A stretch of DNA of 10,446 bases from an uncultured bacterium. GTDB taxonomy: Bacteria > Hinthialibacterota > Hinthialibacteria > Hinthialibacterales > G963663365. The translations under genes were made by a program, and so were the position numbers. Under the pieces are notes generated by a model that had not been told where the DNA came from, made no database searches, and saw only the letters and a list, made by a program, of their open reading frames with translations. Shown piece by piece: positions 1,315 through 10,177 of the stretch. The stretch is taken from positions 1 to 10,446 of the forward strand of contig CAYTDF010000120.1 in assembly GCA_964436365.1 (NCBI GenBank), read 5' to 3'. Positions within the stretch are counted from its first letter, which is position 1. Each line of letters begins with the position of its first letter.

Positions 1315-1593
1315 GGAGTTCGCTAGAATCACCACTTAAAAAAAACCGGTTTATTGAATTCCGACACTAATGCGCATGTTACTGCTGAGAATGTCGGACC
1401 GCAAGGTCCACAGCACTCTGGCGCCGCTAATGAGAAGGCAGTGCGCAAACACCACACGCACTGCATCCGACCTACGGATTCGAAAAGGGCCACTTGCACG
1501 GGTGCTCTTCTGTCCGCTTTCACCGACTGGCGATCTCAGTGCGCCACACCGGCGCCCCGGTCTCACACGCGCCTTTCCTCCCAAGACAGGTCG

Positions 1594-1692: not shown

Positions 1693-3126
1693 CTAGGCCC
1701 TCGCATCGGTGACGGTTCCGTCGGCTGCGTCACACTTGACGACGGCAATCGCACCCTTGTAATCGCCGCCGAGCGCACCGAGAAACTGCTCCATCAGTTG
1801 GTCCGGCGGCATGGTTAATAAATGCCGCTGATAGATGCCGATCCGATGCGCAGCCTCACCCGCGAAGGTATGAAGAACAATAGACTCTCCTGCCGCCAGA
1901 GTTCCTTCCCAGGTCGTCAACTGGTCCAGGCCAAGTCCCTGGAGCCAGATTTGGAACCGGCCGGTCGTCAAATCGATTTCGACACAGTGAAAAAAGTCAA
2001 TCTCGTAAAATCCTGCCAGGATTTCGTAGACATTCGCATCGCCGTCACCGTCGAGATAACTGCGGATCAGCGTGCTGACGGTCGACACACCGAGGAAGAG
2101 ATTCGACTCGTCCGTTCCCTTCAGGGACCCGGTCACCCCAAGTAACTTCTGCGGCGTGCATTGCACGTCGAGGAAATCCCGGCCCGCGGGGCCGATTATC
2201 CTGCCGCATGCGATAAAGGCGCCCGAGGAAACGCGTACGGGGGCCTGGAATTCGGCTGCGTATTTCGCCCGCAAGCCCTCTCGCGTTCTGTGTCTCTCTT
2301 GTTGCATGAGATTCCGGCTGAAGCGGGAATCGGCCTCATCCAGGACACTGATCATCGTATTGTAGGCGTCCCCCAGTTCTTGGAACTCTTGTATACGGAG
2401 AAAACCGAGCCACCGGCGATCCCCCCCCTCCACAGCCGCTCGAAACGCCTCGGTGAGAATCCGGACCGGCCGCCCGATAAACGTAGAAAGCATCTGAATG
2501 GCAACAACTCCCAGGAGCGCGATCGACAATCCGGTTTTGGCAACGTGGGCGATGACGCCGTGGGACCGCTCAGCGATATGTGAAACATCTGTTTCCACGG
2601 CCACAACCGCGACCATTGCGCCGCTGCCGTCGGAGACGGGCGCCAGTGCGCGTAGAACGGGAATAAGTCTGTCCTCAGACTGGTGCCGCAACCGGCGCAC
2701 GACCGCGCGCTCCATCTCTCCGGCATCACTTCGGTCGTGTGAGAGCAACGCCCGGACCGCCTGCAGATCTTCTTCTGAAATCTTCTCCATATCCACCGCT
2801 GTCCAGACTCCTCGCACATACAGAAGCTGTTCGCCGTCTCTTCCGTAAATCGCCAGGCTGCGAAGCAGTCCGGACTCATAGACGCGTTGCAGTGGAGTCA
2901 AAAGGTGCGACACGGTCTCTGCGTCTTCGGCCTCCTTCCCGCCGAGTCGTTCGAGATAGACGGGATTGATGGATTCCGCCAACGAAACGGCGAAGGCTTC
3001 GATTTCGCCTTGCGCCCCCCACATCATTTCATTTCGCTCGGACAGGTACCTGCTAATTCCCATAATCACGACCGCCCCGAGGAGGAGAGGTAAGATCACG
3101 ATTGAGCTTTGGGTGCGGAGTTTCAT
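1693..3126 (-). CDS. Membrane sensor protein with the order TM, periplasmic Cache-like domain, TM, HAMP, then a C-terminal SpoIIE/PP2C-like domain whose catalytic motifs are degenerate (putative pseudo-phosphatase, RsbU-like architecture).
   Basis: The ORF is 477 aa. TM1 is IVILPLLLGAVVIMGI. A ~170-aa extracytoplasmic region ends in the Cache-type pattern GAMVAVVAVETDVS. TM2 is LSIALLGVVAIQMLSTFI. The HAMP pattern is PVRILTEAFRAAVEGG...EFQELGDAYNTMISVLDEA. The C-terminus aligns colinearly to SpoIIE/PP2C motifs at four places. GRDFLDV matches GGDFYDV. LGVTGSLKG matches GDVSGKG with the Asp lost. FFHCVEIDLTTGRFQIWLQGLG matches FTLLYxVLDxxTGxLxYxNAGH. GESIVLHTFAG matches GDRLLLYTDG with the Asp lost. 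Its start codon lies 1 nt after the stop of the upstream gene. Confidence 0.75.
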   Translation of the reverse strand: MKLRTQSSIVILPLLLGAVVIMGISRYLSERNEMMWGAQGEIEAFAVSLAESINPVYLERLGGKEAEDAETVSHLLTPLQRVYESGLLRSLAIYGRDGEQLLYVRGVWTAVDMEKISEEDLQAVRALLSHDRSDAGEMERAVVRRLRHQSEDRLIPVLRALAPVSDGSGAMVAVVAVETDVSHIAERSHGVIAHVAKTGLSIALLGVVAIQMLSTFIGRPVRILTEAFRAAVEGGDRRWLGFLRIQEFQELGDAYNTMISVLDEADSRFSRNLMQQERHRTREGLRAKYAAEFQAPVRVSSGAFIACGRIIGPAGRDFLDVQCTPQKLLGVTGSLKGTDESNLFLGVSTVSTLIRSYLDGDGDANVYEILAGFYEIDFFHCVEIDLTTGRFQIWLQGLGLDQLTTWEGTLAAGESIVLHTFAGEAAHRIGIYQRHLLTMPPDQLMEQFLGALGGDYKGAIAVVKCDAADGTVTDARA

Positions 3127-3127
3127 A

Positions 3128-3532
3128 TCACTTATCGAATGCTTCGCAGATTCCTTCCCGGTGAGCGAGTGGCAGTAACCCCACCACGAATGCCGGGCAG
3201 TCGTTCAGGATGGTAAAGAAGTGTCCTTTTTGAATCGTCAGACAATGTGCCCCCGCCTCTTCTCCCGCTACGAGTTCGCACGACAGCGGAGCGTCGAAGA
3301 GCAGTGAGTGCAGACCGATGGCTGTCGGCAGTTCCTCTCCCCCAGGCGTCACCAATCGTCCCTCGACGGCGACGATCAGACGCGAGAGCACAGTACCCGG
3401 CTGTACCACAATCTGCCCGGGACGGTAGGTGCGCTCCTTCGCCACCTCCGCGACAAGACCCAGTTCGCCGTCCCGTAGCGCGTCGAAGGGAGGCACATTG
3501 CGAAGTGCGAAAAGTTTCTCAATGAGATTCAT
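3128..3532 (-). CDS. Stand-alone cyclic-nucleotide-binding (CAP/CNB-fold) domain protein of 134 aa, with an atypical phosphate-binding cassette.
   Basis: The stretch LFALRNVPPFDALRDGELGLVAEVAKERTYRPGQIVVQPGTVLSRLIVAVEGRLVT follows the CNB helix and beta-roll consensus. The PBC region (LHSLLFDAPLSCELVAGEE) lacks the conserved Arg. The ATG overlaps the stop of the upstream sensor gene by 4 nt (ATGA). Confidence 0.7.
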   Translation of the reverse strand: MNLIEKLFALRNVPPFDALRDGELGLVAEVAKERTYRPGQIVVQPGTVLSRLIVAVEGRLVTPGGEELPTAIGLHSLLFDAPLSCELVAGEEAGAHCLTIQKGHFFTILNDCPAFVVGLLPLAHREGICEAFDK

Positions 3533-5928
3533 GATCTTGGCCTAGCCACAATCGTAACGGTTGATGCAGGGACACAAACCCCTGCGGTCCTCACCCTAAC
3601 TCTTATTTGGTCCGCCAGGACGTGCGCTCCGGAAGCCGCCATCTGTCCTGCGGTGCTTCCTTCCAGAAAAGAAGCCACCAGTGGCGCTGCTTCCGGAGAA
3701 CTCAGAATCAGCGCCTGGCTCTCTTGGATCGACGTCGATGTAATCTCAGACAGTGGCAGCTCCCGGCGATGCCCCTGAGCGTCAATGGACACACAGGCGA
3801 GCGGACAATTTGGTAAAACGCGCGTCTCGCCGTTCTCGCTGTCCATATAGACGAACCATTCGACGCGGTCCGGGTAGATCCTTTCGAGCAAGGAAGAAAT
3901 CGCGTTCCAGTCACCCCCATGTTTCTCCAGCAAACAAACCGAAGCATAGGCGATCTCGCAACGCAGTTTGGCTTCTTGCAACGCGTCTCCACTTTGCTTC
4001 CCGGCCCAGGCAATTACACGGCTTTCCCATTCCACGGCGCCCGAAAAGTTCCCCACAGTCTCTTCCACGCCGATGTGCAAACTGCCCACGGCCCCCTCAC
4101 GCAACTTCGCGAGGGCGGCATACTCCCGCGATAGCATACGCGTGAGTTCCCGGCGTGCGGATTCATCGGTCAATCGTCTTCGCGCGCTGGATCGCTCGTC
4201 AGACGATTTCTTGAGTGCTTGGCTGAGCCGATTGAACGCGCTGCACAGTTCTTTGACTTCCGCTGGCCCCTCAATCGGGGCTTGCTCGCCGTAGTGCCCC
4301 GCAGCCACGCTGATCGTCTTCTCACGCAACTGCGCGATGGGTTTGGTGAGGGCCAAAATAACGAGGTAGACCGCCAAGAGTGTTGCAAAGAATGCGAAGA
4401 GCCCCACCGCCAGCGTCTTCAACAAGGCGATGCGTGCTTTTGGCTCGATGATAGAAACATCGATATCCGTTCCCACAATCGCACAAACCAAACCGGCGGT
4501 GTCATAGATCGGTGCGTAGCCGGTTTTCAGCAGCCCCCACTCCGCCCACTCCTCGACGTCGGATTGATAGACACCCCCCAATGTGACCTTCCCATAAACC
4601 TGGTACCCAGTGCCCTCCGGATACGTATCTTCGTCACCAATCGCCGAGTGGTCCTCATCGGTACTCGCGTCGAGGAGGTAAATAATATCGTCCGGGCCCT
4701 GTTTCTCCGGATGGTAAAACGCGTACAAATACGTGACGTTCAGTTTCTCTTTGATCCGGCGCATGGGCAAAACTTCGTCGAGGTACGCGTCGCTGACTTC
4801 ATTGTGGAATCCACGCCACCAACCTTCTTCCCAGACGGTCCCGCTGTTTGGATCGATGCCCACCAAACCGTCCGCGGCAGCAAGCAAGTACTGCCGTTCG
4901 GCGTCCCAGGCCAGTCCCCGGATCGCCGACTCGAACAAGAGCAGCGGGGCCGACTCGGACTCCACCACCTCCACGGGACCGTTTTCCTCCGCATCGGGCG
5001 TCTCTACCTCTGTGTCGGCCGGATGCTGCACGTCATGAATATGTTGGGCGATATCCAACACCAGGGAGCGTGCGGCGGCGGTCTCGCCGGGCGACGCCAT
5101 TCCGCGTACGCGGTCGTATTCCAACGCCCGCAAGAAATCCTGTCTGTCGATTTGGACCGGTGCCGAGCGCGCTACCGCCGTCGGCTGAGGACCGGATCGA
5201 AGCCGTCCGAGCGGACGAACGGCCGCTGTCTGCGGATCGATGGCCACCAGTTTCTGGGCTGTTTCGTCGATCCCGAGCAAGCGCCCGGCGGATGGATCGT
5301 AAACAAGGCCTGTCAAAGAAACCGAAAGCGGCCCCACAACCTTGGCGTCTCCCGAGATCGGCTCCACACGGAGCAGCGCGGCCCCGCCCGCGTACAGGGT
5401 CTTTTCCTCCAAGTGATACGCCAGCCCGGTACAGGGTTGCGGCAGAGGCGTAGTAGCCGTTGCTTCACCACGATCCATTGCGATGACGGCCAAATGCGAA
5501 CCTGAGCGGTCCAAGCCGTACAGCACGTCCGCGCCGGGGTCGTGAGCGAGTGCGGTGATTCCTTCCAGTCCGTGCCCTTGAGTCGCTTCCAGGCCGCCAT
5601 GACGCGGATCAATGGTCACCAGTTGCCCTGACTCCCGGTCAATCCCGAACAGCGCAGATCGTGAGTCCACGTACGCCAGGCATTCAACGGCAGGTTTCCG
5701 GAGAATCGTCTTCATCCCCCGATCGCCATCGATAAACGCGCCCACCACCGTGCTAACCGCTGAGAGCTGGCGACCAAAACCGTCGTCAATGCCGCTGTAG
5801 AGGTCTCGATAGGTGTTTGCGCCCATCCAGACCGTTGCCGCCAATAGAATCGGCAGCAGAAAGGTCAGGTACGCCGACTGCATCCGGAATCGGAGCCCAT
5901 CTCGCTTATGGTCTTGCCGTGCGCTCAT
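3529..5928 (-). CDS. Large membrane sensor protein with the order TM, periplasmic YVTN-like beta-propeller repeats plus a Cache-like module, TM, HAMP, then a highly degenerate SpoIIE/PP2C-like C-terminal domain.
   Basis: The ORF is 799 aa. The N-terminal TM is LTFLLPILLAATVWMG. At least four ~40-aa repeats have the form GLAYxxxxxxLYGxDxxxxxLxxIDPxTG, for example GLVYDPSAGRLLGIDETAQKLVAIDPQTAAV and GLAWDAERQYLLAAADGLVGIDPNSGTV. The Cache-like pattern is YDTAGLVCAIVGTDIDVSII. The second TM is LAVGLFAFFATLLAVYLVILAL, and the HAMP pattern is KPIAQLREKTISVAAGHYGEQ...VKELCSAFNRLSQAL. The C-terminus matches the SpoIIE-fold motifs but with the metal-binding Asp residues substituted. VGNFSG stands in place of VGGDFYD. 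FVYMDSENGETRVLPNCPL stands in place of the FTLLY..AGH motif. The GDxLLLYTDG motif has no recognisable counterpart. AGGTGA lies 8 nt upstream of the ATG, and the ATG abuts the stop of the upstream gene (TGAATG). Confidence 0.85.
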   Translation of the reverse strand: MSARQDHKRDGLRFRMQSAYLTFLLPILLAATVWMGANTYRDLYSGIDDGFGRQLSAVSTVVGAFIDGDRGMKTILRKPAVECLAYVDSRSALFGIDRESGQLVTIDPRHGGLEATQGHGLEGITALAHDPGADVLYGLDRSGSHLAVIAMDRGEATATTPLPQPCTGLAYHLEEKTLYAGGAALLRVEPISGDAKVVGPLSVSLTGLVYDPSAGRLLGIDETAQKLVAIDPQTAAVRPLGRLRSGPQPTAVARSAPVQIDRQDFLRALEYDRVRGMASPGETAAARSLVLDIAQHIHDVQHPADTEVETPDAEENGPVEVVESESAPLLLFESAIRGLAWDAERQYLLAAADGLVGIDPNSGTVWEEGWWRGFHNEVSDAYLDEVLPMRRIKEKLNVTYLYAFYHPEKQGPDDIIYLLDASTDEDHSAIGDEDTYPEGTGYQVYGKVTLGGVYQSDVEEWAEWGLLKTGYAPIYDTAGLVCAIVGTDIDVSIIEPKARIALLKTLAVGLFAFFATLLAVYLVILALTKPIAQLREKTISVAAGHYGEQAPIEGPAEVKELCSAFNRLSQALKKSSDERSSARRRLTDESARRELTRMLSREYAALAKLREGAVGSLHIGVEETVGNFSGAVEWESRVIAWAGKQSGDALQEAKLRCEIAYASVCLLEKHGGDWNAISSLLERIYPDRVEWFVYMDSENGETRVLPNCPLACVSIDAQGHRRELPLSEITSTSIQESQALILSSPEAAPLVASFLEGSTAGQMAASGAHVLADQIRVRVRTAGVCVPASTVTIVARPRS

Positions 5929-8900
5929 TCAGTCGCTCACCTGCACTTCGAGAAAACCGAGGGCGATACGCGGGTACGTCCGTGCGCATTTCGACAGATG
6001 ATCCCTGTCCAGTCGATAGACGGTAACCGAACCGGCAGCCGAGGCGCTATGGGGACACGTTCGGATTCCCCGAAGGATTTCCTCTCCGAAGCAATCGTAT
6101 TCCCCACACGTCTTCGTATCCCCGTTCACAAGCCGGACTTCTCCCGACTCGATCGCGTAAATGCAGTCGGCCACATCTCCTTCTGCGTAGATTCGTTCAC
6201 CGTCTTGATAGAAATGCGGCCGTGCTCCGGCTCCAAGGGAAAATAGATCCATTGTGGATATTTGGGAGAACAATCGCGTGCGTGCAAGAATCGCGGTCCG
6301 CTGGATCGAATTGCGGAGCGCTGACCGGTCTCCTTCGTGTTGCAAGATCGAAAACACCGTGTCGCGCACCAATGACGAAGCCGCGCCGATCCCGTAACCG
6401 AGGCGCTCCCGTACGCGGGATAACTGGAAATCTTCAGTCGCCGCCGAACCTGCCGGCATCCAACCAGATGCAGCCAACTCCCACTGTGCCTGAGCCGCTG
6501 CGGAGCGCTCCACTTCCACGTGGCTGTCCCAGGCGGCATTCAGGACCTTTTCGGGCGACATTCGGTCCGCCTTGTAATGACGCAAATAGAACGCAATTCG
6601 ATCTTCGATAGCCCGGCCGTCGATAAGAGGCAACAGAAGATTGAACGTCGAGCGGTCTACGGCCTGTTCAAGCGTTTCCATCGCATTGCCACGTGTCTTC
6701 GGACTTTTCGAACGTAGCGAAGTGGCGATCAATTCATGGCTCGGCAGCTGTCCTCCCAGAGCGAGTATCTCAAGAATGAATTCCAAGGTCGTGATCTGTT
6801 CATCCCGGTAGAAGCGCGACAGCACCTCCAATCCGTACGATGGCGTTTCTAATGCTTCGAGCGCGGCATGGTACTGCAACATCTGGTAAGCGCGAGGCAC
6901 TTCGGCTTCGACCAGTTTGGGGACCAGATACTGCAATTGCGCAAACGCCGACCGGGCCACGGCCCGCACAGCGATGGACCGTCCGGCATAAGGATAGGTT
7001 ACATCGCAGAGCACCTGCGCGCAGGCAGGGACGCTCCGCAGCTCCATGCGGGCAATCGCCTGTTGGGCTTTGCGGCGCTCGAAGGGTGAGAAGGACCGGG
7101 CCTTGGAGAGCATAAGAGGGATCGCGTTCGAGTCGCGAATCCGCTCCAGTGCCTGGAATCCGGCGGAGCGCACGGCTTCATCGTCCTCGTCCAAAGCGGA
7201 TAGGATCGTAGGCAAAATACCGGCCGTACTGCTGTCGGCGAGGTCCGCGACAGCGATCTGCGCGGCGCGGCGCACCTCCGGTTCTGGATCGTGCAAGTAC
7301 TTGGTGAGATAGATCGCGTACCGGCTCTGCCCCGTGTGCCCGAGCGATCGGATTCCCGCCACGCGCTCCTTGTCGCCGCCTTCCAGAAGACTGCGGAGAG
7401 CAGTGCTTGCGAGGCAGCCTTGTTCGACGTCCCAGCTATTCCACAGAACCGCCGTCGCCGTCCCCCGGGCTTCCCTGTGCCGCGATTTCAGCATTCGGAG
7501 TGTGATTTCTGTCGGAATCAGATGATAGCGCCCGAGTTCTTGAATCACCGCATTGCTCACGTCGCGCTCGTGATTCATGACCCAGTCGATCAAGATCAGC
7601 AAGACCTCACCGTCGCGCGCGGCCAGCATCTCCGCCAAGACTTCGTAAATACACTCCAATTCCGCCCCACCACCCCGTTCGAGCAATTGCAGCAACATCC
7701 GCACGGCTCGTTTGCGGTCCTTCAGCCAGAGGATACGGCAAGCGGCGACAGCGTTCTCCAGGTCTTCAGATGCTCCCTGCCGCACGAGCGTTTCGATTTC
7801 CGGTTCATCCATATCCTCAAAAATCTCGGCATCCGCTTCCGAGAAATCCAACCATTCTTTCCGAAGGTTGCCGAGCATCGCACCCACATAATGGTGGCGT
7901 AGACACAGGACGATCCCCATGTACACAGCCGTCAAGCCAACGGCGGCGACCGATACTTGCAAGTGATTCCACGATAGGTAACGGTCCAGTACGAGCAAGC
8001 AGAGACCCGCCAACGCGCCGCCCACGGGGTCGCTGACACCTTCGGTAAACGCGCGAACTCTGGCTTTCACGCCCTTCGGCACGGGATTCAGCATGAGATT
8101 GTAATTGTTGTACTCGATGGCTGTCTGTACTCCCTGGAAGGCAAAGAACGCGAAAATGGCCGCGTAAAACATGGGATTCACGTTTCCGTAAACGGCGATG
8201 AAGGCCACGAAGGTGACAATATAGGCGGTCGGTTGAATCAGTGCCGTGTTGCGTACGCCTATCCGCGTAACCAGACGATTGAAAACAATGAAGGTTACCA
8301 CGGTATTAAAGATATTGACGTACATGAACAAGTATCCAAAGAGTTTTGCCAGTTCACGTTCGTCCGTGTAGCGCAGTTCGAATGCGCGCATATACTGAAA
8401 CTCACAGATGTTCGTAATAAACATCAATGAAAAAGAGGAGAGTGTAAAGAAAAGAACGTACTTCGTTTTCCTGTATGCGCGTCCAACAGTGCGTATCTGG
8501 TCCCAGAAGGCACTCGTTTCCTCTTCTTCTTCTGCTTCGATATAGGAAAAGCGTTTCCCGATGCGCCACATCGGCAGGTTCGCGGCCAGCCCGAGTCCCG
8601 CCCAGATCAAATAGAGATTGGAGACCGCCCAACCGTGATCCATGAATGCCGTCACAGCGTAACCGCCTGCGGTAGCGCCCACCATTCCCATACCGCTGAA
8701 TACGGGAAACAGCCGCTTGGCGCTGAGGATGTCGAAATAGGCGTCGACAAAATTCCAATAGATGGTAAAGACACAGATATAGAAAATGCTGGAGTATATC
8801 TTGATGCCGTAGTAATAGAGCCATCCCAGCGGATGCCCTGCCAAAGCCGTCTCATCTATCAGAGCGATACAGACCCCCCCGGCAAAGAGGATGAAGTTTG

Positions 8901-9159
8901 TCACGGTCTGAAGGCGATACACACCGAGCTTCTGCGTCAAATAGGAGACCAGTGGCGCTACCAAAAACATGACTGCGGGCAGGATAAAATAGACGTAGGG
9001 CAGCTTCTGAGAGCCCAGATTGGAGAGAAACAGAGAGTCGGAAGCAGCAAATCCGATGGCCACACCGGCTTGCAGAAGTCCGCCGACGAGTGAGAACAGA
9101 ACGACTTTTCCGCCTTCGCCTTCGTAGACGCGACAGATTCTCATGACAGCCTTTATCAT
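5929..9159 (-). CDS. Fusion protein of an N-terminal 12-TM TLC-family (ATP/ADP translocase / Npt-like, MFS-fold) nucleotide-transporter domain, central HEAT repeats and a C-terminal cyclic-nucleotide-binding domain.
   Basis: The ORF is 1076 aa. Twelve hydrophobic helices are seen in the first ~420 aa. The TLC signature YWNFVDAYFDILSAKRLFPVFSGMGMVGATAGG matches the FWxFANEIxTxEEAKRFYxLxGxGANxG pattern. The acidic 6/7 loop is EAEEEEETS. HEAT/PBS-lyase-like repeats include DPEPEVRRAAQIAVADLADSST...LDEDDEAVRSAGFQALERIRD. The C-terminal CNB domain reads LFSQISTMDLFSLGAGARPHFYQDGERIYAEGDVADCIYAIESGEVRL...GEYDCFGEEILRG...YRLDRDHL. The alternative start at M6 (9142..9144) has a weak AAGG SD. Confidence 0.9.
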   Translation of the reverse strand: MIKAVMRICRVYEGEGGKVVLFSLVGGLLQAGVAIGFAASDSLFLSNLGSQKLPYVYFILPAVMFLVAPLVSYLTQKLGVYRLQTVTNFILFAGGVCIALIDETALAGHPLGWLYYYGIKIYSSIFYICVFTIYWNFVDAYFDILSAKRLFPVFSGMGMVGATAGGYAVTAFMDHGWAVSNLYLIWAGLGLAANLPMWRIGKRFSYIEAEEEEETSAFWDQIRTVGRAYRKTKYVLFFTLSSFSLMFITNICEFQYMRAFELRYTDERELAKLFGYLFMYVNIFNTVVTFIVFNRLVTRIGVRNTALIQPTAYIVTFVAFIAVYGNVNPMFYAAIFAFFAFQGVQTAIEYNNYNLMLNPVPKGVKARVRAFTEGVSDPVGGALAGLCLLVLDRYLSWNHLQVSVAAVGLTAVYMGIVLCLRHHYVGAMLGNLRKEWLDFSEADAEIFEDMDEPEIETLVRQGASEDLENAVAACRILWLKDRKRAVRMLLQLLERGGGAELECIYEVLAEMLAARDGEVLLILIDWVMNHERDVSNAVIQELGRYHLIPTEITLRMLKSRHREARGTATAVLWNSWDVEQGCLASTALRSLLEGGDKERVAGIRSLGHTGQSRYAIYLTKYLHDPEPEVRRAAQIAVADLADSSTAGILPTILSALDEDDEAVRSAGFQALERIRDSNAIPLMLSKARSFSPFERRKAQQAIARMELRSVPACAQVLCDVTYPYAGRSIAVRAVARSAFAQLQYLVPKLVEAEVPRAYQMLQYHAALEALETPSYGLEVLSRFYRDEQITTLEFILEILALGGQLPSHELIATSLRSKSPKTRGNAMETLEQAVDRSTFNLLLPLIDGRAIEDRIAFYLRHYKADRMSPEKVLNAAWDSHVEVERSAAAQAQWELAASGWMPAGSAATEDFQLSRVRERLGYGIGAASSLVRDTVFSILQHEGDRSALRNSIQRTAILARTRLFSQISTMDLFSLGAGARPHFYQDGERIYAEGDVADCIYAIESGEVRLVNGDTKTCGEYDCFGEEILRGIRTCPHSASAAGSVTVYRLDRDHLSKCARTYPRIALGFLEVQVSD

Positions 9160-9337: not shown

Positions 9338-10177
9338 CTAGAAACTCCATCCCACGCTGATGAGCGCGCAGAACTCGTCATCGGGATTCACAGAATCCTC
9401 AAACGAAAACTGATAGTGGATCGCAGGAGTGACATACATCTGTTTCCACTCGAATGTCGTGGAGACGCCCGCCGTCGCGTGGCTCCACGCCGACGACGAT
9501 CCGTACGCACCGTCGTTGTATACGACTTGTCCGCTCAAGGACAGTGCTTGCTCCTCCTGGTCCGGCAGCAGGGTCGGAATCGGGACATCGTAACCCAAAC
9601 CGAGGTAGTGAAACCAGCCGTTATCGACCGCGTCCGAACTCTGTACGCCGTCCCAATCGTAATAAACTTCGTAAGAGGGAACGAGAGCCGAAGGCCCGAG
9701 CGAAATCAAGTTAGGAAATGAAATACCCAACCAGATTTCCTCAGAATCGCTCCTGCTGTCGATTTTCGGAAAGGAGAAATAAGTGAACCCGGTCGCGGCG
9801 TCGATCGCATAGCGTTCGTCACTGAAAAACGAACACGCGTAACTCGCGAAGTAGTCGAGTTCCGTAAGATCCTCAAAACCACTCGAGGCTGGCCAAGCCC
9901 CCCACACGCCGGCCGAGCCCCCCCAAAAGTCGAAGGTGATGCTGGGCTGAAGGGTAGCGTGGTCGTCAAAGACATCGTAGCCGTGCCACATGTATTTGGT
10001 GGCGTATGTGAAATCGAGCGTCACGCCAAGATCGTGCTCTCCGATTTCAAAGGCTTGTGACGATCTTGTTCCCAATGTGACAGCCGCCAAAGCCGCGATA
10101 GAAACGGCGAGACGTCGCAAACGGCTCTCGTGCAGAATTCCCATGGAAGAGCGTGTGCCTTTCATTATGTTCCTCAC
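9338..10177 (-). CDS. Secreted outer-membrane beta-barrel protein of the TorF/Gcw_chp-like putative porin family.
   Basis: The ORF is 279 aa. The signal peptide is RLRRLAVSIAALAAVTLGTRSSQA|FE. The N-terminal motif LDFTYATKYMWHGYDVFDDHATLQPSITFDFWG resembles the family signature (S/T-DY-x-x-RG-x-x-Q..PA-x-Q-x-x-x-D-Y). Alternating aromatic and small residues suggest beta-strands, and the protein ends on an aromatic residue (..VGWSF), which is typical of OM barrels. The start could equally be M5 (10163..10165, preceded by AGGAAC) or M12 (10142..10144). Confidence 0.75.
   Translation of the reverse strand: MRNIMKGTRSSMGILHESRLRRLAVSIAALAAVTLGTRSSQAFEIGEHDLGVTLDFTYATKYMWHGYDVFDDHATLQPSITFDFWGGSAGVWGAWPASSGFEDLTELDYFASYACSFFSDERYAIDAATGFTYFSFPKIDSRSDSEEIWLGISFPNLISLGPSALVPSYEVYYDWDGVQSSDAVDNGWFHYLGLGYDVPIPTLLPDQEEQALSLSGQVVYNDGAYGSSSAWSHATAGVSTTFEWKQMYVTPAIHYQFSFEDSVNPDDEFCALISVGWSF

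Follow-up and report, generated by a model that had tools for sequence, protein, structure and literature searches.

Nucleotide transporters (NTTs) of the TLC type are usually taken as a hallmark of energy parasitism. What, then, is the role of a protein with this fold in a bacterium which, unlike the bearers of canonical NTTs, shows no sign of an intracellular lifestyle in the DNA analysed? The question is raised by a gene on contig CAYTDF010000120.1 (assembly GCA_964436365.1) of an uncultured bacterium of the Hinthialibacterota, of which a stretch of 10,446 nucleotides (nt), hereafter the window, was analysed. The gene encodes 1076 amino acids (aa), and the product is a fusion of an NTT-fold membrane domain, a HEAT solenoid and a domain with the cyclic-nucleotide-binding (CNB) fold, belonging to a distinct subfamily that is widespread among free-living bacteria. 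Members of this subfamily lack the lysines with which canonical NTTs bind nucleotide phosphates and have a degenerate phosphate-binding cassette (PBC) in the CNB domain, and their gene comes first among the inner-membrane components of a conserved gene cassette.

Domain layout and family membership of the fusion protein

The protein is encoded by a single open reading frame (ORF) of 1076 codons with an ATG start; the coordinates in Table 1 include the stop codon. The corresponding database protein (P0001) has 1071 aa and begins at the second Met (MRICRV..., window 9144..9159). The upstream ATG at 9159 (MIKAVMRICRV...) is favoured, since the alignment with homologues extends to residue 1. Around 100 full-length homologues with 28-49% identity are present in public data, the nearest named one in an Omnitrophota metagenome-assembled genome (MAG), and the ORF is therefore a real, conserved gene. 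A sequence-only reading of this DNA had described the ORF as a TLC transporter with HEAT repeats and a CNB domain, and its coordinates were confirmed exactly, while all three parts were recovered with Pfam and AlphaFold2. The AlphaFold2 model is confident (pLDDT 90.8, pTM 0.84) and contains 12 long transmembrane (TM) helices at about residues 16-435, also seen in the hydropathy profile, followed by an all-helical solenoid and by beta-roll strands (980-1051) with flanking helices. Pfam detected HEAT_2 (45.9 bits, gathering threshold (GA) 27.7) and HEAT (37.8 bits), and phmmer matched the solenoid to alphaRep/HEAT proteins in PDB. The C-terminal domain passes the CNB profile, as had been predicted, with 45.2 bits for cNMP_binding (GA 27.5) at residues 983-1061.

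Table 1. Coordinates of the fusion gene, its domains and neighbouring features in the window
Feature	Position	Strand	Evidence
Complete ORF, NTT/TLC-fold transporter with HEAT solenoid and CNB-fold domain	5929..9159	-	ORF list, Pfam, AlphaFold2, homologues
Residues 1-440, 12-TM NTT/TLC-type MFS domain	7840..9159	-	PDB profile, Foldseek, hydropathy, AlphaFold2, conservation
Residues 443-960, cytoplasmic HEAT/ARM-type solenoid	6280..7833	-	Pfam HEAT_2/HEAT, phmmer, AlphaFold2 helix pairs
Residues 961-1076, CNB-fold domain (N-helices, 8-strand beta-roll, C-helices)	5932..6279	-	Pfam, phmmer, Foldseek
PBC region FGEEILRGIRTCPHSASA, residues 1024-1041, opening with FGEEIL (1024-1029)	6037..6090	-	
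799-aa membrane sensor: TM, YVTN/beta-propeller-like periplasmic repeats, sensor module, TM, HAMP (523-573), C-terminal domain	3529..5928	-	Pfam, PDB profile, hhalign
134-aa stand-alone CNB-fold protein	3128..3532	-	PDB profile, hhalign; Pfam sub-threshold (15.6 bits)
477-aa membrane sensor: TM, PDC/sCache-like periplasmic domain, TM, HAMP-like region, PP2C-fold domain without catalytic Asp motif	1693..3126	-	AlphaFold2, Foldseek, hhalign
279-aa putative outer-membrane beta-barrel, signal-like N-terminal segment, C-terminal ...GWSF	9338..10177	-	weak TIGR02001 match
Terminator-like hairpin past the last cassette gene	1438..1464	-	consensus scan only, weak
Band 7/SPFH-domain protein, 348 aa	230..1276	-	

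Single-sequence bit scores were ambiguous on whether the membrane domain is of the TLC type or belongs to the generic major facilitator superfamily (MFS). Pfam TLC scored 23.2 bits (GA 21) with a partial match (residues 115-326, profile positions 151-374 of 491), and MFS_1 scored 31.1 bits, under its GA of 33.4. Therefore, profile and structure comparisons were used. A profile of the N-terminal domain built from 33 family members was searched against all PDB sequences at E up to 10. It matched NTT1 of C. pneumoniae (E 1.4e-7), Arabidopsis NTT1 (AtNTT1, E 3e-3) and two irrelevant non-transporters; further MFS proteins were not matched. When the model was compared with PDB by Foldseek, NTT1 structures (9j3n, 9j3l and 9j3m) took the first three ranks, with target-normalised TM-scores (TMt) of 0.68-0.75. 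The domain also carries the TLC signature W135-N-F-x-D-x-Y-F-D-x(3)-A-K148-R149-L-F, in which W-N-F-x-D-x-Y-F-D-I-x-x-A-K-R-L-F aligns with F-W-G-F-A-N-E-I-T-x-x-x-E-A-K-R-F-Y. Since profile, structure ranking and signature agree, the membrane domain is NTT/TLC-type, in accordance with the sequence-only reading, and a generic MFS identity is ruled out by the profile and Foldseek searches. Polar residues within the TM helices are conserved, including K120, E253, Q255, N282, N285, R369, E373 and the subfamily motif E-Y-N351-N352-x-N354 (EYNNxN), which argues for functional constraint on the domain.

Canonical NTTs, such as AtNTT1/AATP1 and Chlamydia Npt1/NTT1 (PDB 9j3j-9j3o), are the best structural match and, among transporters, the only PDB profile match of the protein. 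They share with it the pattern W-x-F-x(n)-A-K-[RK]-[FL]-[YF] and an acidic residue equivalent to E385 of AATP1. However, identity to them is 13-15%, the membrane domain has around 440 instead of around 500 residues, and the fusion protein carries around 640 extra cytoplasmic residues.

The same three-domain order occurs in the NTT-HEAT-cNBD fusions of free-living bacteria described by Major, Embley & Williams 2017 (Genome Biol Evol 9:480; PMC5381601), where NTT-HEAT and NTT-HEAT-cNBD proteins make up a monophyletic bacterial clade, broadly distributed and of unknown function. Over its full length, the TM domain shares 39% identity (E 1e-91) with Novosphingobium pentaromativorans WP_007011509.1, labelled HEAT in the supplement of that paper, and our protein is therefore a new member of the published family. 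By this pairwise comparison with the published dataset, its NTT domain groups with the NTT-HEAT sequences. The architecture, which the sequence-only reading had presented as unusual, is thus not a new kind of protein. A later functional characterisation of NTT-HEAT fusions was not found in the searchable literature. TLC-positive NTT-HEAT-cNBD proteins are matched by phmmer over 99% of the length of the protein (E 1e-35), although identity to the members with a canonical PBC is only 18-21%. The subfamily differs from these canonical members in its degenerate PBC, the EYNNxN motif and a fixed neighbourhood of HAMP, CNB-like and pseudo-PP2C genes. This neighbourhood is not mentioned in the accessible part of Major et al. 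2017 (PMC5381601).

Residues for nucleotide exchange and cyclic-nucleotide binding

Four charged residues of AATP1 (K155, E245, E385 and K527) show strong conservation among characterised NTTs and matter for transport, and a link to the transport of triphosphates is known for K527 (PMC4256464). Residue numbers in the PDB chain of AtNTT1 differ by 84 from those of AATP1, and this offset was validated by chain residues E161, E301 and K443, which land exactly on E245, E385 and K527. The position of E245 is occupied by S124 in our protein and by T/A/S/G in the family, while E385 corresponds to E253, a Glu in 77/79 family members. K527 corresponds to G381, where the family has Thr in 50/79. No Lys was found at the position of K155, where our protein has an insertion relative to the family, and the family has no Lys either. 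Hence only the E385 equivalent is kept out of the four, and the proposal of the sequence-only reading that a nucleotide could be the substrate finds no backing at residue level. TLC-positive NTT-HEAT relatives lack the equivalents of the same three residues (K155, E245 and K527). We are moderately confident in the alignment-derived positions of K527 and K155. Judged by these residues, canonical ATP/ADP exchange by the protein is unlikely.

The CNB fold of the C-terminal domain is well preserved. The CNB domains of PKG, PKA and SthK were matched by phmmer (E 5e-9), and CRP and GlxR by Foldseek with a root-mean-square deviation of 2.2-2.6 Å; KCNH, CprK, CRP and GlxR structures are among the CNB matches. 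The AlphaFold2 model places a short helix at residues 1026-1030 within the beta-roll. In the PBC, FGEEILRGIRTCPHSASA, Gly1025 and Glu1026 are canonical. The position of the canonical Arg, the contact to the cyclic phosphate expected 11 residues past the Phe, is occupied by Cys1035 in the ungapped register, and in an alternative HMMER alignment to PKG with a two-residue insertion the position is taken by His1037. The pattern G-E-x(8-9)-R-[ST]-A does not occur in the protein. The domain had been called well conserved, which holds for its fold and fails for its ligand-contact residues.

The loss extends to the subfamily. Among 92 full-length members, G-E is kept in 34 and G-E plus Arg in 18, and the full G-E...R-[ST]-A motif was found in none. 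Eight distant relatives from the TLC-positive NTT-HEAT-cNBD proteins were in the alignment; all eight retain G, E, R and S/T, and seven of them also the Ala. Because the PBC is degenerate in the protein as well as in the subfamily, the sequence comparison makes classical cAMP/cGMP gating unlikely for this protein, and such gating is not a property of the subfamily as a whole. The gating of transport by a cyclic nucleotide, which had been read from the architecture, is thereby left without its canonical Arg and without a full motif in any member. CNB-homology domains that do not bind cyclic nucleotides include the CNBHD of KCNH/EAG channels and CooA and CprK of the CRP/FNR family. By analogy, our protein would resemble them in keeping the CNB fold with replaced phosphate-contact residues.

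A conserved gene cassette with sensor and CNB-like partners

The stop codon of the transporter gene abuts the start of a gene for a 799-aa protein, which in turn overlaps the gene for a 134-aa protein by 4 nt, and a gene for a 477-aa protein follows. A gene for a 279-aa protein lies 178 nt upstream of the transporter gene. These five genes are found in identical order in three relatives, where the transporters are only 41-49% identical to ours. For a wider survey, 83 loci from species-representative genomes and MAGs were found with an alignment of 20 sequences, and the partners were located by tblastn; 68 non-redundant loci with at least 4.5 kb downstream were informative. The order transporter, HAMP gene, CNB-like gene on the same strand is present in 64 of the 68, across Alphaproteobacteria, Verrucomicrobiota, Gemmatimonadota, Acidobacteriota, Cyanobacteria and others. 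The four loci without this order are three from Chlamydiota (24-25% identity) and one from a Caulobacteraceae MAG. After the CNB-like gene there is usually a second HAMP sensor with a PP2C fold lacking the catalytic Asp motifs. The HAMP and CNB-like partners are absent beside the three canonical TLC-positive relatives examined, one of which instead has a cNBD gene directly after its NTT-HEAT gene, and for this reason the synteny appears specific to the subfamily.

The 799-aa protein matches 1l0q through its YVTN/propeller-like repeats (PDB profile, E 3e-7), and its HAMP domain was detected by Pfam. Its middle sensor module is homologous (hhalign 99.9%) to the N-terminal part of the SpoIIE-type phosphatases whose genes adjoin alphaproteobacterial cassettes. 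The C-terminal domain matched a PP2C catalytic domain at 78% and the C-terminus of the 477-aa protein at 93% by hhalign; it is probably PP2C-like, with the catalytic Asp motifs absent. The 134-aa protein matches PKG CNB domains in PDB with its profile (E 1.4e-10) and is homologous to the CNB domain of the transporter itself (hhalign 99%, E 2e-18). Its PBC is degenerate, with neither Glu nor Arg.

The 477-aa protein is represented by 145 representative clusters in public data (exhaustive search) and was modelled by AlphaFold2 with a pLDDT of 89.6. Foldseek matched it to RsbX (3w40, TMt 0.64, E 2e-6), the phosphatase-like domain of RssB (3f79), the RsbU domain of Rv1364c (3ke6) and the PDC sensor domains of WalK/CitA. 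HAMP was found in 26/58 members of its family, and it is orthologous to the fourth gene of the alphaproteobacterial loci (hhalign 98-99.6%). Where PP2C phosphatases carry the metal-binding motifs GGD...GDVSGKG...TDG, this protein reads GRDF...VTGSLKG...HTF, and the PP2C motifs are conserved neither in its family nor in that of the 799-aa protein. Due to this loss, both proteins are probably pseudo-phosphatases.

The 279-aa protein matched the TorF-porin profile TIGR02001 below its cutoff (E 3e-4) and no PDB sequence. Its gene stands directly upstream of the transporter gene only in the closest relatives (L001:7101-7937, L002:3214-3999 and L003:7158-7946). Together with that of the window, these are proteins of 262-279 aa that begin with a signal-like segment and end in an aromatic residue. 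The protein is 48-54% identical in these three loci and thus better conserved than the transporter. It is probably an outer-membrane barrel dedicated to the cassette.

Beside orthologous cassettes in Alphaproteobacteria and some Verrucomicrobiota there is a full set of PP2C, STAS and kinase genes. Pfam detected SpoIIE, HATPase_c_2 and STAS genes beside the cassette in Niveispirillum (L033), Novosphingobium (L040) and a verrucomicrobial MAG (L012). The bona fide SpoIIE PP2C, the RsbW-like HATPase_c_2 kinase and the STAS protein lie at L033:5159-6814(-), 11855-13603 and 13600-13941, at L040:5240-6886(-) and 12903-13349, and at L012:1754-3044(-). The SpoIIE PP2C of these partner-switching sets has the same sensor module as the 799-aa protein of the window, and Niveispirillum encodes its RsbW-like kinase as a fusion with a homologue of the 477-aa protein. 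Among 52 tblastn matches to SpoIIE, four (L009, L019, L027 and L029) lie within the HAMP gene; they stem from the module that both have in common and do not point to an additional phosphatase. With RsbU/RsbX-RsbV-RsbW modules and RssB adaptors, the window has in common the RsbX/RssB/RsbU PP2C fold of the 477-aa protein. However, it differs from RsbU/V/W modules in that both PP2C-like domains lack the metal-binding Asp motifs and no sigma factor or output was identified.

The same three loci carry a pyridoxal-5'-phosphate (PLP) decarboxylase of the Orn/DAP/Arg family beside the cassette (L033:2482-4069, L040:13397-15099 and L012:4960-6276; Pfam), which is LysA-like by NCBIfam and below the lysA equivalog cutoff. 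By tblastn, a LysA-like decarboxylase is present within a few kb of the transporter in 52 of the 83 loci, in several phylum-level groups. These comprise Alphaproteobacteria, Verrucomicrobiota and single loci of other phyla, and the gene usually adjoins one for a SET-domain protein (Pfam-confirmed in Novosphingobium, found by tblastn in Niveispirillum). Two loci (L002:1237-2087 and L003:6162-6967) have an unrelated AdoMetDC-like pyruvoyl decarboxylase in that place, each beside a SET-domain gene. This gene content suggests that the cassette is linked to a decarboxylation product. The window shows neither a decarboxylase nor a SET gene, and the contig ends 270 nt past the barrel gene.

The arrangement of the CNB domain varies among the loci. 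The transporter of Novosphingobium mathurense (L040) has 879 aa and no CNB match, and a stand-alone CNB-like gene may therefore replace the fused domain there. The Niveispirillum transporter is full length with a weak CNB match. In most other alphaproteobacterial loci (among L042-L083) the tblastn match to our protein ends near residue 850, which suggests the same truncation. These loci recall the readiness of the cNBD to fuse and to split that Major et al. 2017 (PMC5381601) pointed out. In Halalkalibaculum (L085:5648-10193), a plain 446-aa TLC/MFS gene stands before the canonical TLC-positive NTT-HEAT gene, and directly after the latter comes a 143-aa cNMP_binding gene of its own. The locus thus has the split layout of Major et al. 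2017 (PMC5381601), and HAMP partners are missing from it.

Downstream of the cassette, past a gap of 416 nt that holds the terminator-like hairpin, lies the Band 7/SPFH gene. It was considered as a cassette member and rejected, as it is near a homologue only in L009. Terminator-like sites in the window are not enriched over shuffles, and the promoter and terminator scan was uninformative. Rfam detected no structured RNAs in the window. An anti-phage defence system, such as a Pycsar-like effector responding to cyclic nucleotide monophosphates (cNMPs), was also rejected, as PADLOC gave only generic HEAT-repeat similarity for the cassette proteins.

Possible roles of the transporter and its cassette

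We favour, with moderate confidence, the reading that the protein is a transporter or sensor for something other than ATP/ADP, whose HEAT-CNB arm docks the HAMP/PP2C-type and CNB-like partners. The TM domain would move or sense a small solute, and the arm would act as a protein-protein docking and regulatory platform for these partners. Through such physical coupling, transport may be connected to envelope signalling. To the cassette itself, the closest relatives add the putative outer-membrane barrel upstream, and other phyla a STAS protein, a kinase of the RsbW type and an active PP2C. The substrate is possibly related to the neighbouring decarboxylase.

Several points weigh against this reading. 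The mapping of K527 and K155 comes from a weak HMMER segment (domain 2, not significant) and from the motif spacing [KR]-x3-[DE]-x4-P. The microsporidian ThNTT1 and ThNTT3 also lack three of the four AATP1 residues (PMC4256464), and residue loss alone is therefore compatible with nucleotide transport. Arg1033, which lies near the PBC site out of register, and His1037 might substitute for the canonical Arg, and cyclic-nucleotide binding might persist in some of the 18 subfamily members with G-E plus Arg. For the C-terminus of the 799-aa protein, the PP2C match by hhalign reaches only 78%. Moreover, no STAS protein, RsbW-like/HATPase_c_2 kinase or active PP2C is encoded in the window, so that the three components do not occur there together with a competent PP2C, and a partner switch is not demonstrable for this organism.

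The alternative closest to the sequence-only reading is an exchanger of nucleotides (ATP/ADP or another NTP) gated by cAMP/cGMP at the CNB domain, with the HEAT solenoid transmitting the signal or auto-inhibiting. We consider it distinctly improbable. It agrees with the NTT fold, the TLC signature and the PBC Gly-Glu of the CNB fold, with the canonical PBC of the distant TLC-positive relatives and the 18/92 members with G-E plus Arg, and with the published suggestion of a possible tuning of ATP uptake by the cNBD (Major et al. 2017, PMC5381601). The sperm Na+/H+ exchanger SLC9C1, a secondary transporter with a C-terminal CNBD like our protein, is a precedent for cNMP-regulated carriers; however, its transporter fold is a different one, it lacks a HEAT solenoid and its ligand site is canonical, and it appears in the Foldseek list by its CNB domain only (global TM-score 0.11). 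Against gating speak the absence of the PBC Arg in both registers and of the full motif in all 92 members, and no adenylate or guanylate cyclase is present in the window or the conserved neighbourhood. Against exchange speaks the loss of three of the four AATP1 residues, including the triphosphate-linked K527. Rather unlikely, too, is a membrane receptor or scaffold that does not transport, a transceptor or pseudo-transporter, in which the NTT-like domain would only bind a ligand or serve as an anchor while a signalling complex with the pseudo-PP2C sensors assembles on the HEAT-CNB arm. The strict synteny with signalling proteins, the long HEAT scaffold and the degeneration of the catalytic or ligand site in each of the three partner domains would fit this role, whereas the conserved polar and charged TM residues and the complete 12-helix MFS fold are expected of an active carrier.

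The decarboxylase invites a further explanation. Decarboxylases are known in pairs with antiporters, such as CadA/CadB and AdiA/AdiC, and NTTs are exchangers by mechanism. By this analogy, the protein could exchange an amino acid and its amine, precursor for product, in the service of the co-located decarboxylase and under regulation by the signalling partners. The decarboxylase in 52/83 loci, its AdoMetDC-like substitute with a SET gene in L002 and L003, and the retention of acidic D41, E253 and E373 in a TM domain that has lost lysines are in agreement with such an exchanger. However, the association is dominated by Alphaproteobacteria and Verrucomicrobiota and is not seen in the loci from Gemmatimonadota and Acidobacteriota. 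The window itself has no visible decarboxylase, given the nearby contig end; the enzyme scores below the lysA equivalog cutoff, and the CadA/CadB-type pairing is drawn on by analogy. We regard this explanation as very unlikely.

A broader version of the favoured non-ATP/ADP transporter or sensor may be ventured as a speculation, to which we give little weight. Instead of nucleotide transporters, the proteins of this NTT-HEAT subfamily could be the arm by which an envelope signalling module, widespread and so far undescribed, transports or senses an amine or another decarboxylase product, with the HEAT-CNB part as the docking platform that couples flux to signalling. The composition of that module, as part of this proposal, is equally tentative: it might consist of a pair of HAMP sensors whose PP2C domains are inactive, together with a CNB-like adaptor, and many phyla might add a partner switch of the RsbU/V/W type.

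NTT-HEAT(-cNBD) fusions are the largest group of the NTT family in free-living bacteria, and none has been characterised. New here is the residue-level evidence against ATP/ADP exchange in this group, and against classical cyclic-nucleotide binding in the subfamily of our protein. Apparently new as well is a subfamily genetically locked to HAMP/pseudo-PP2C sensors and a CNB-like protein, for which no published description was found. Cultured alphaproteobacterial hosts of the cassette include Novosphingobium, Sphingopyxis, Phenylobacterium, Niveispirillum, and Azospirillum, and in these bacteria the family is experimentally approachable.

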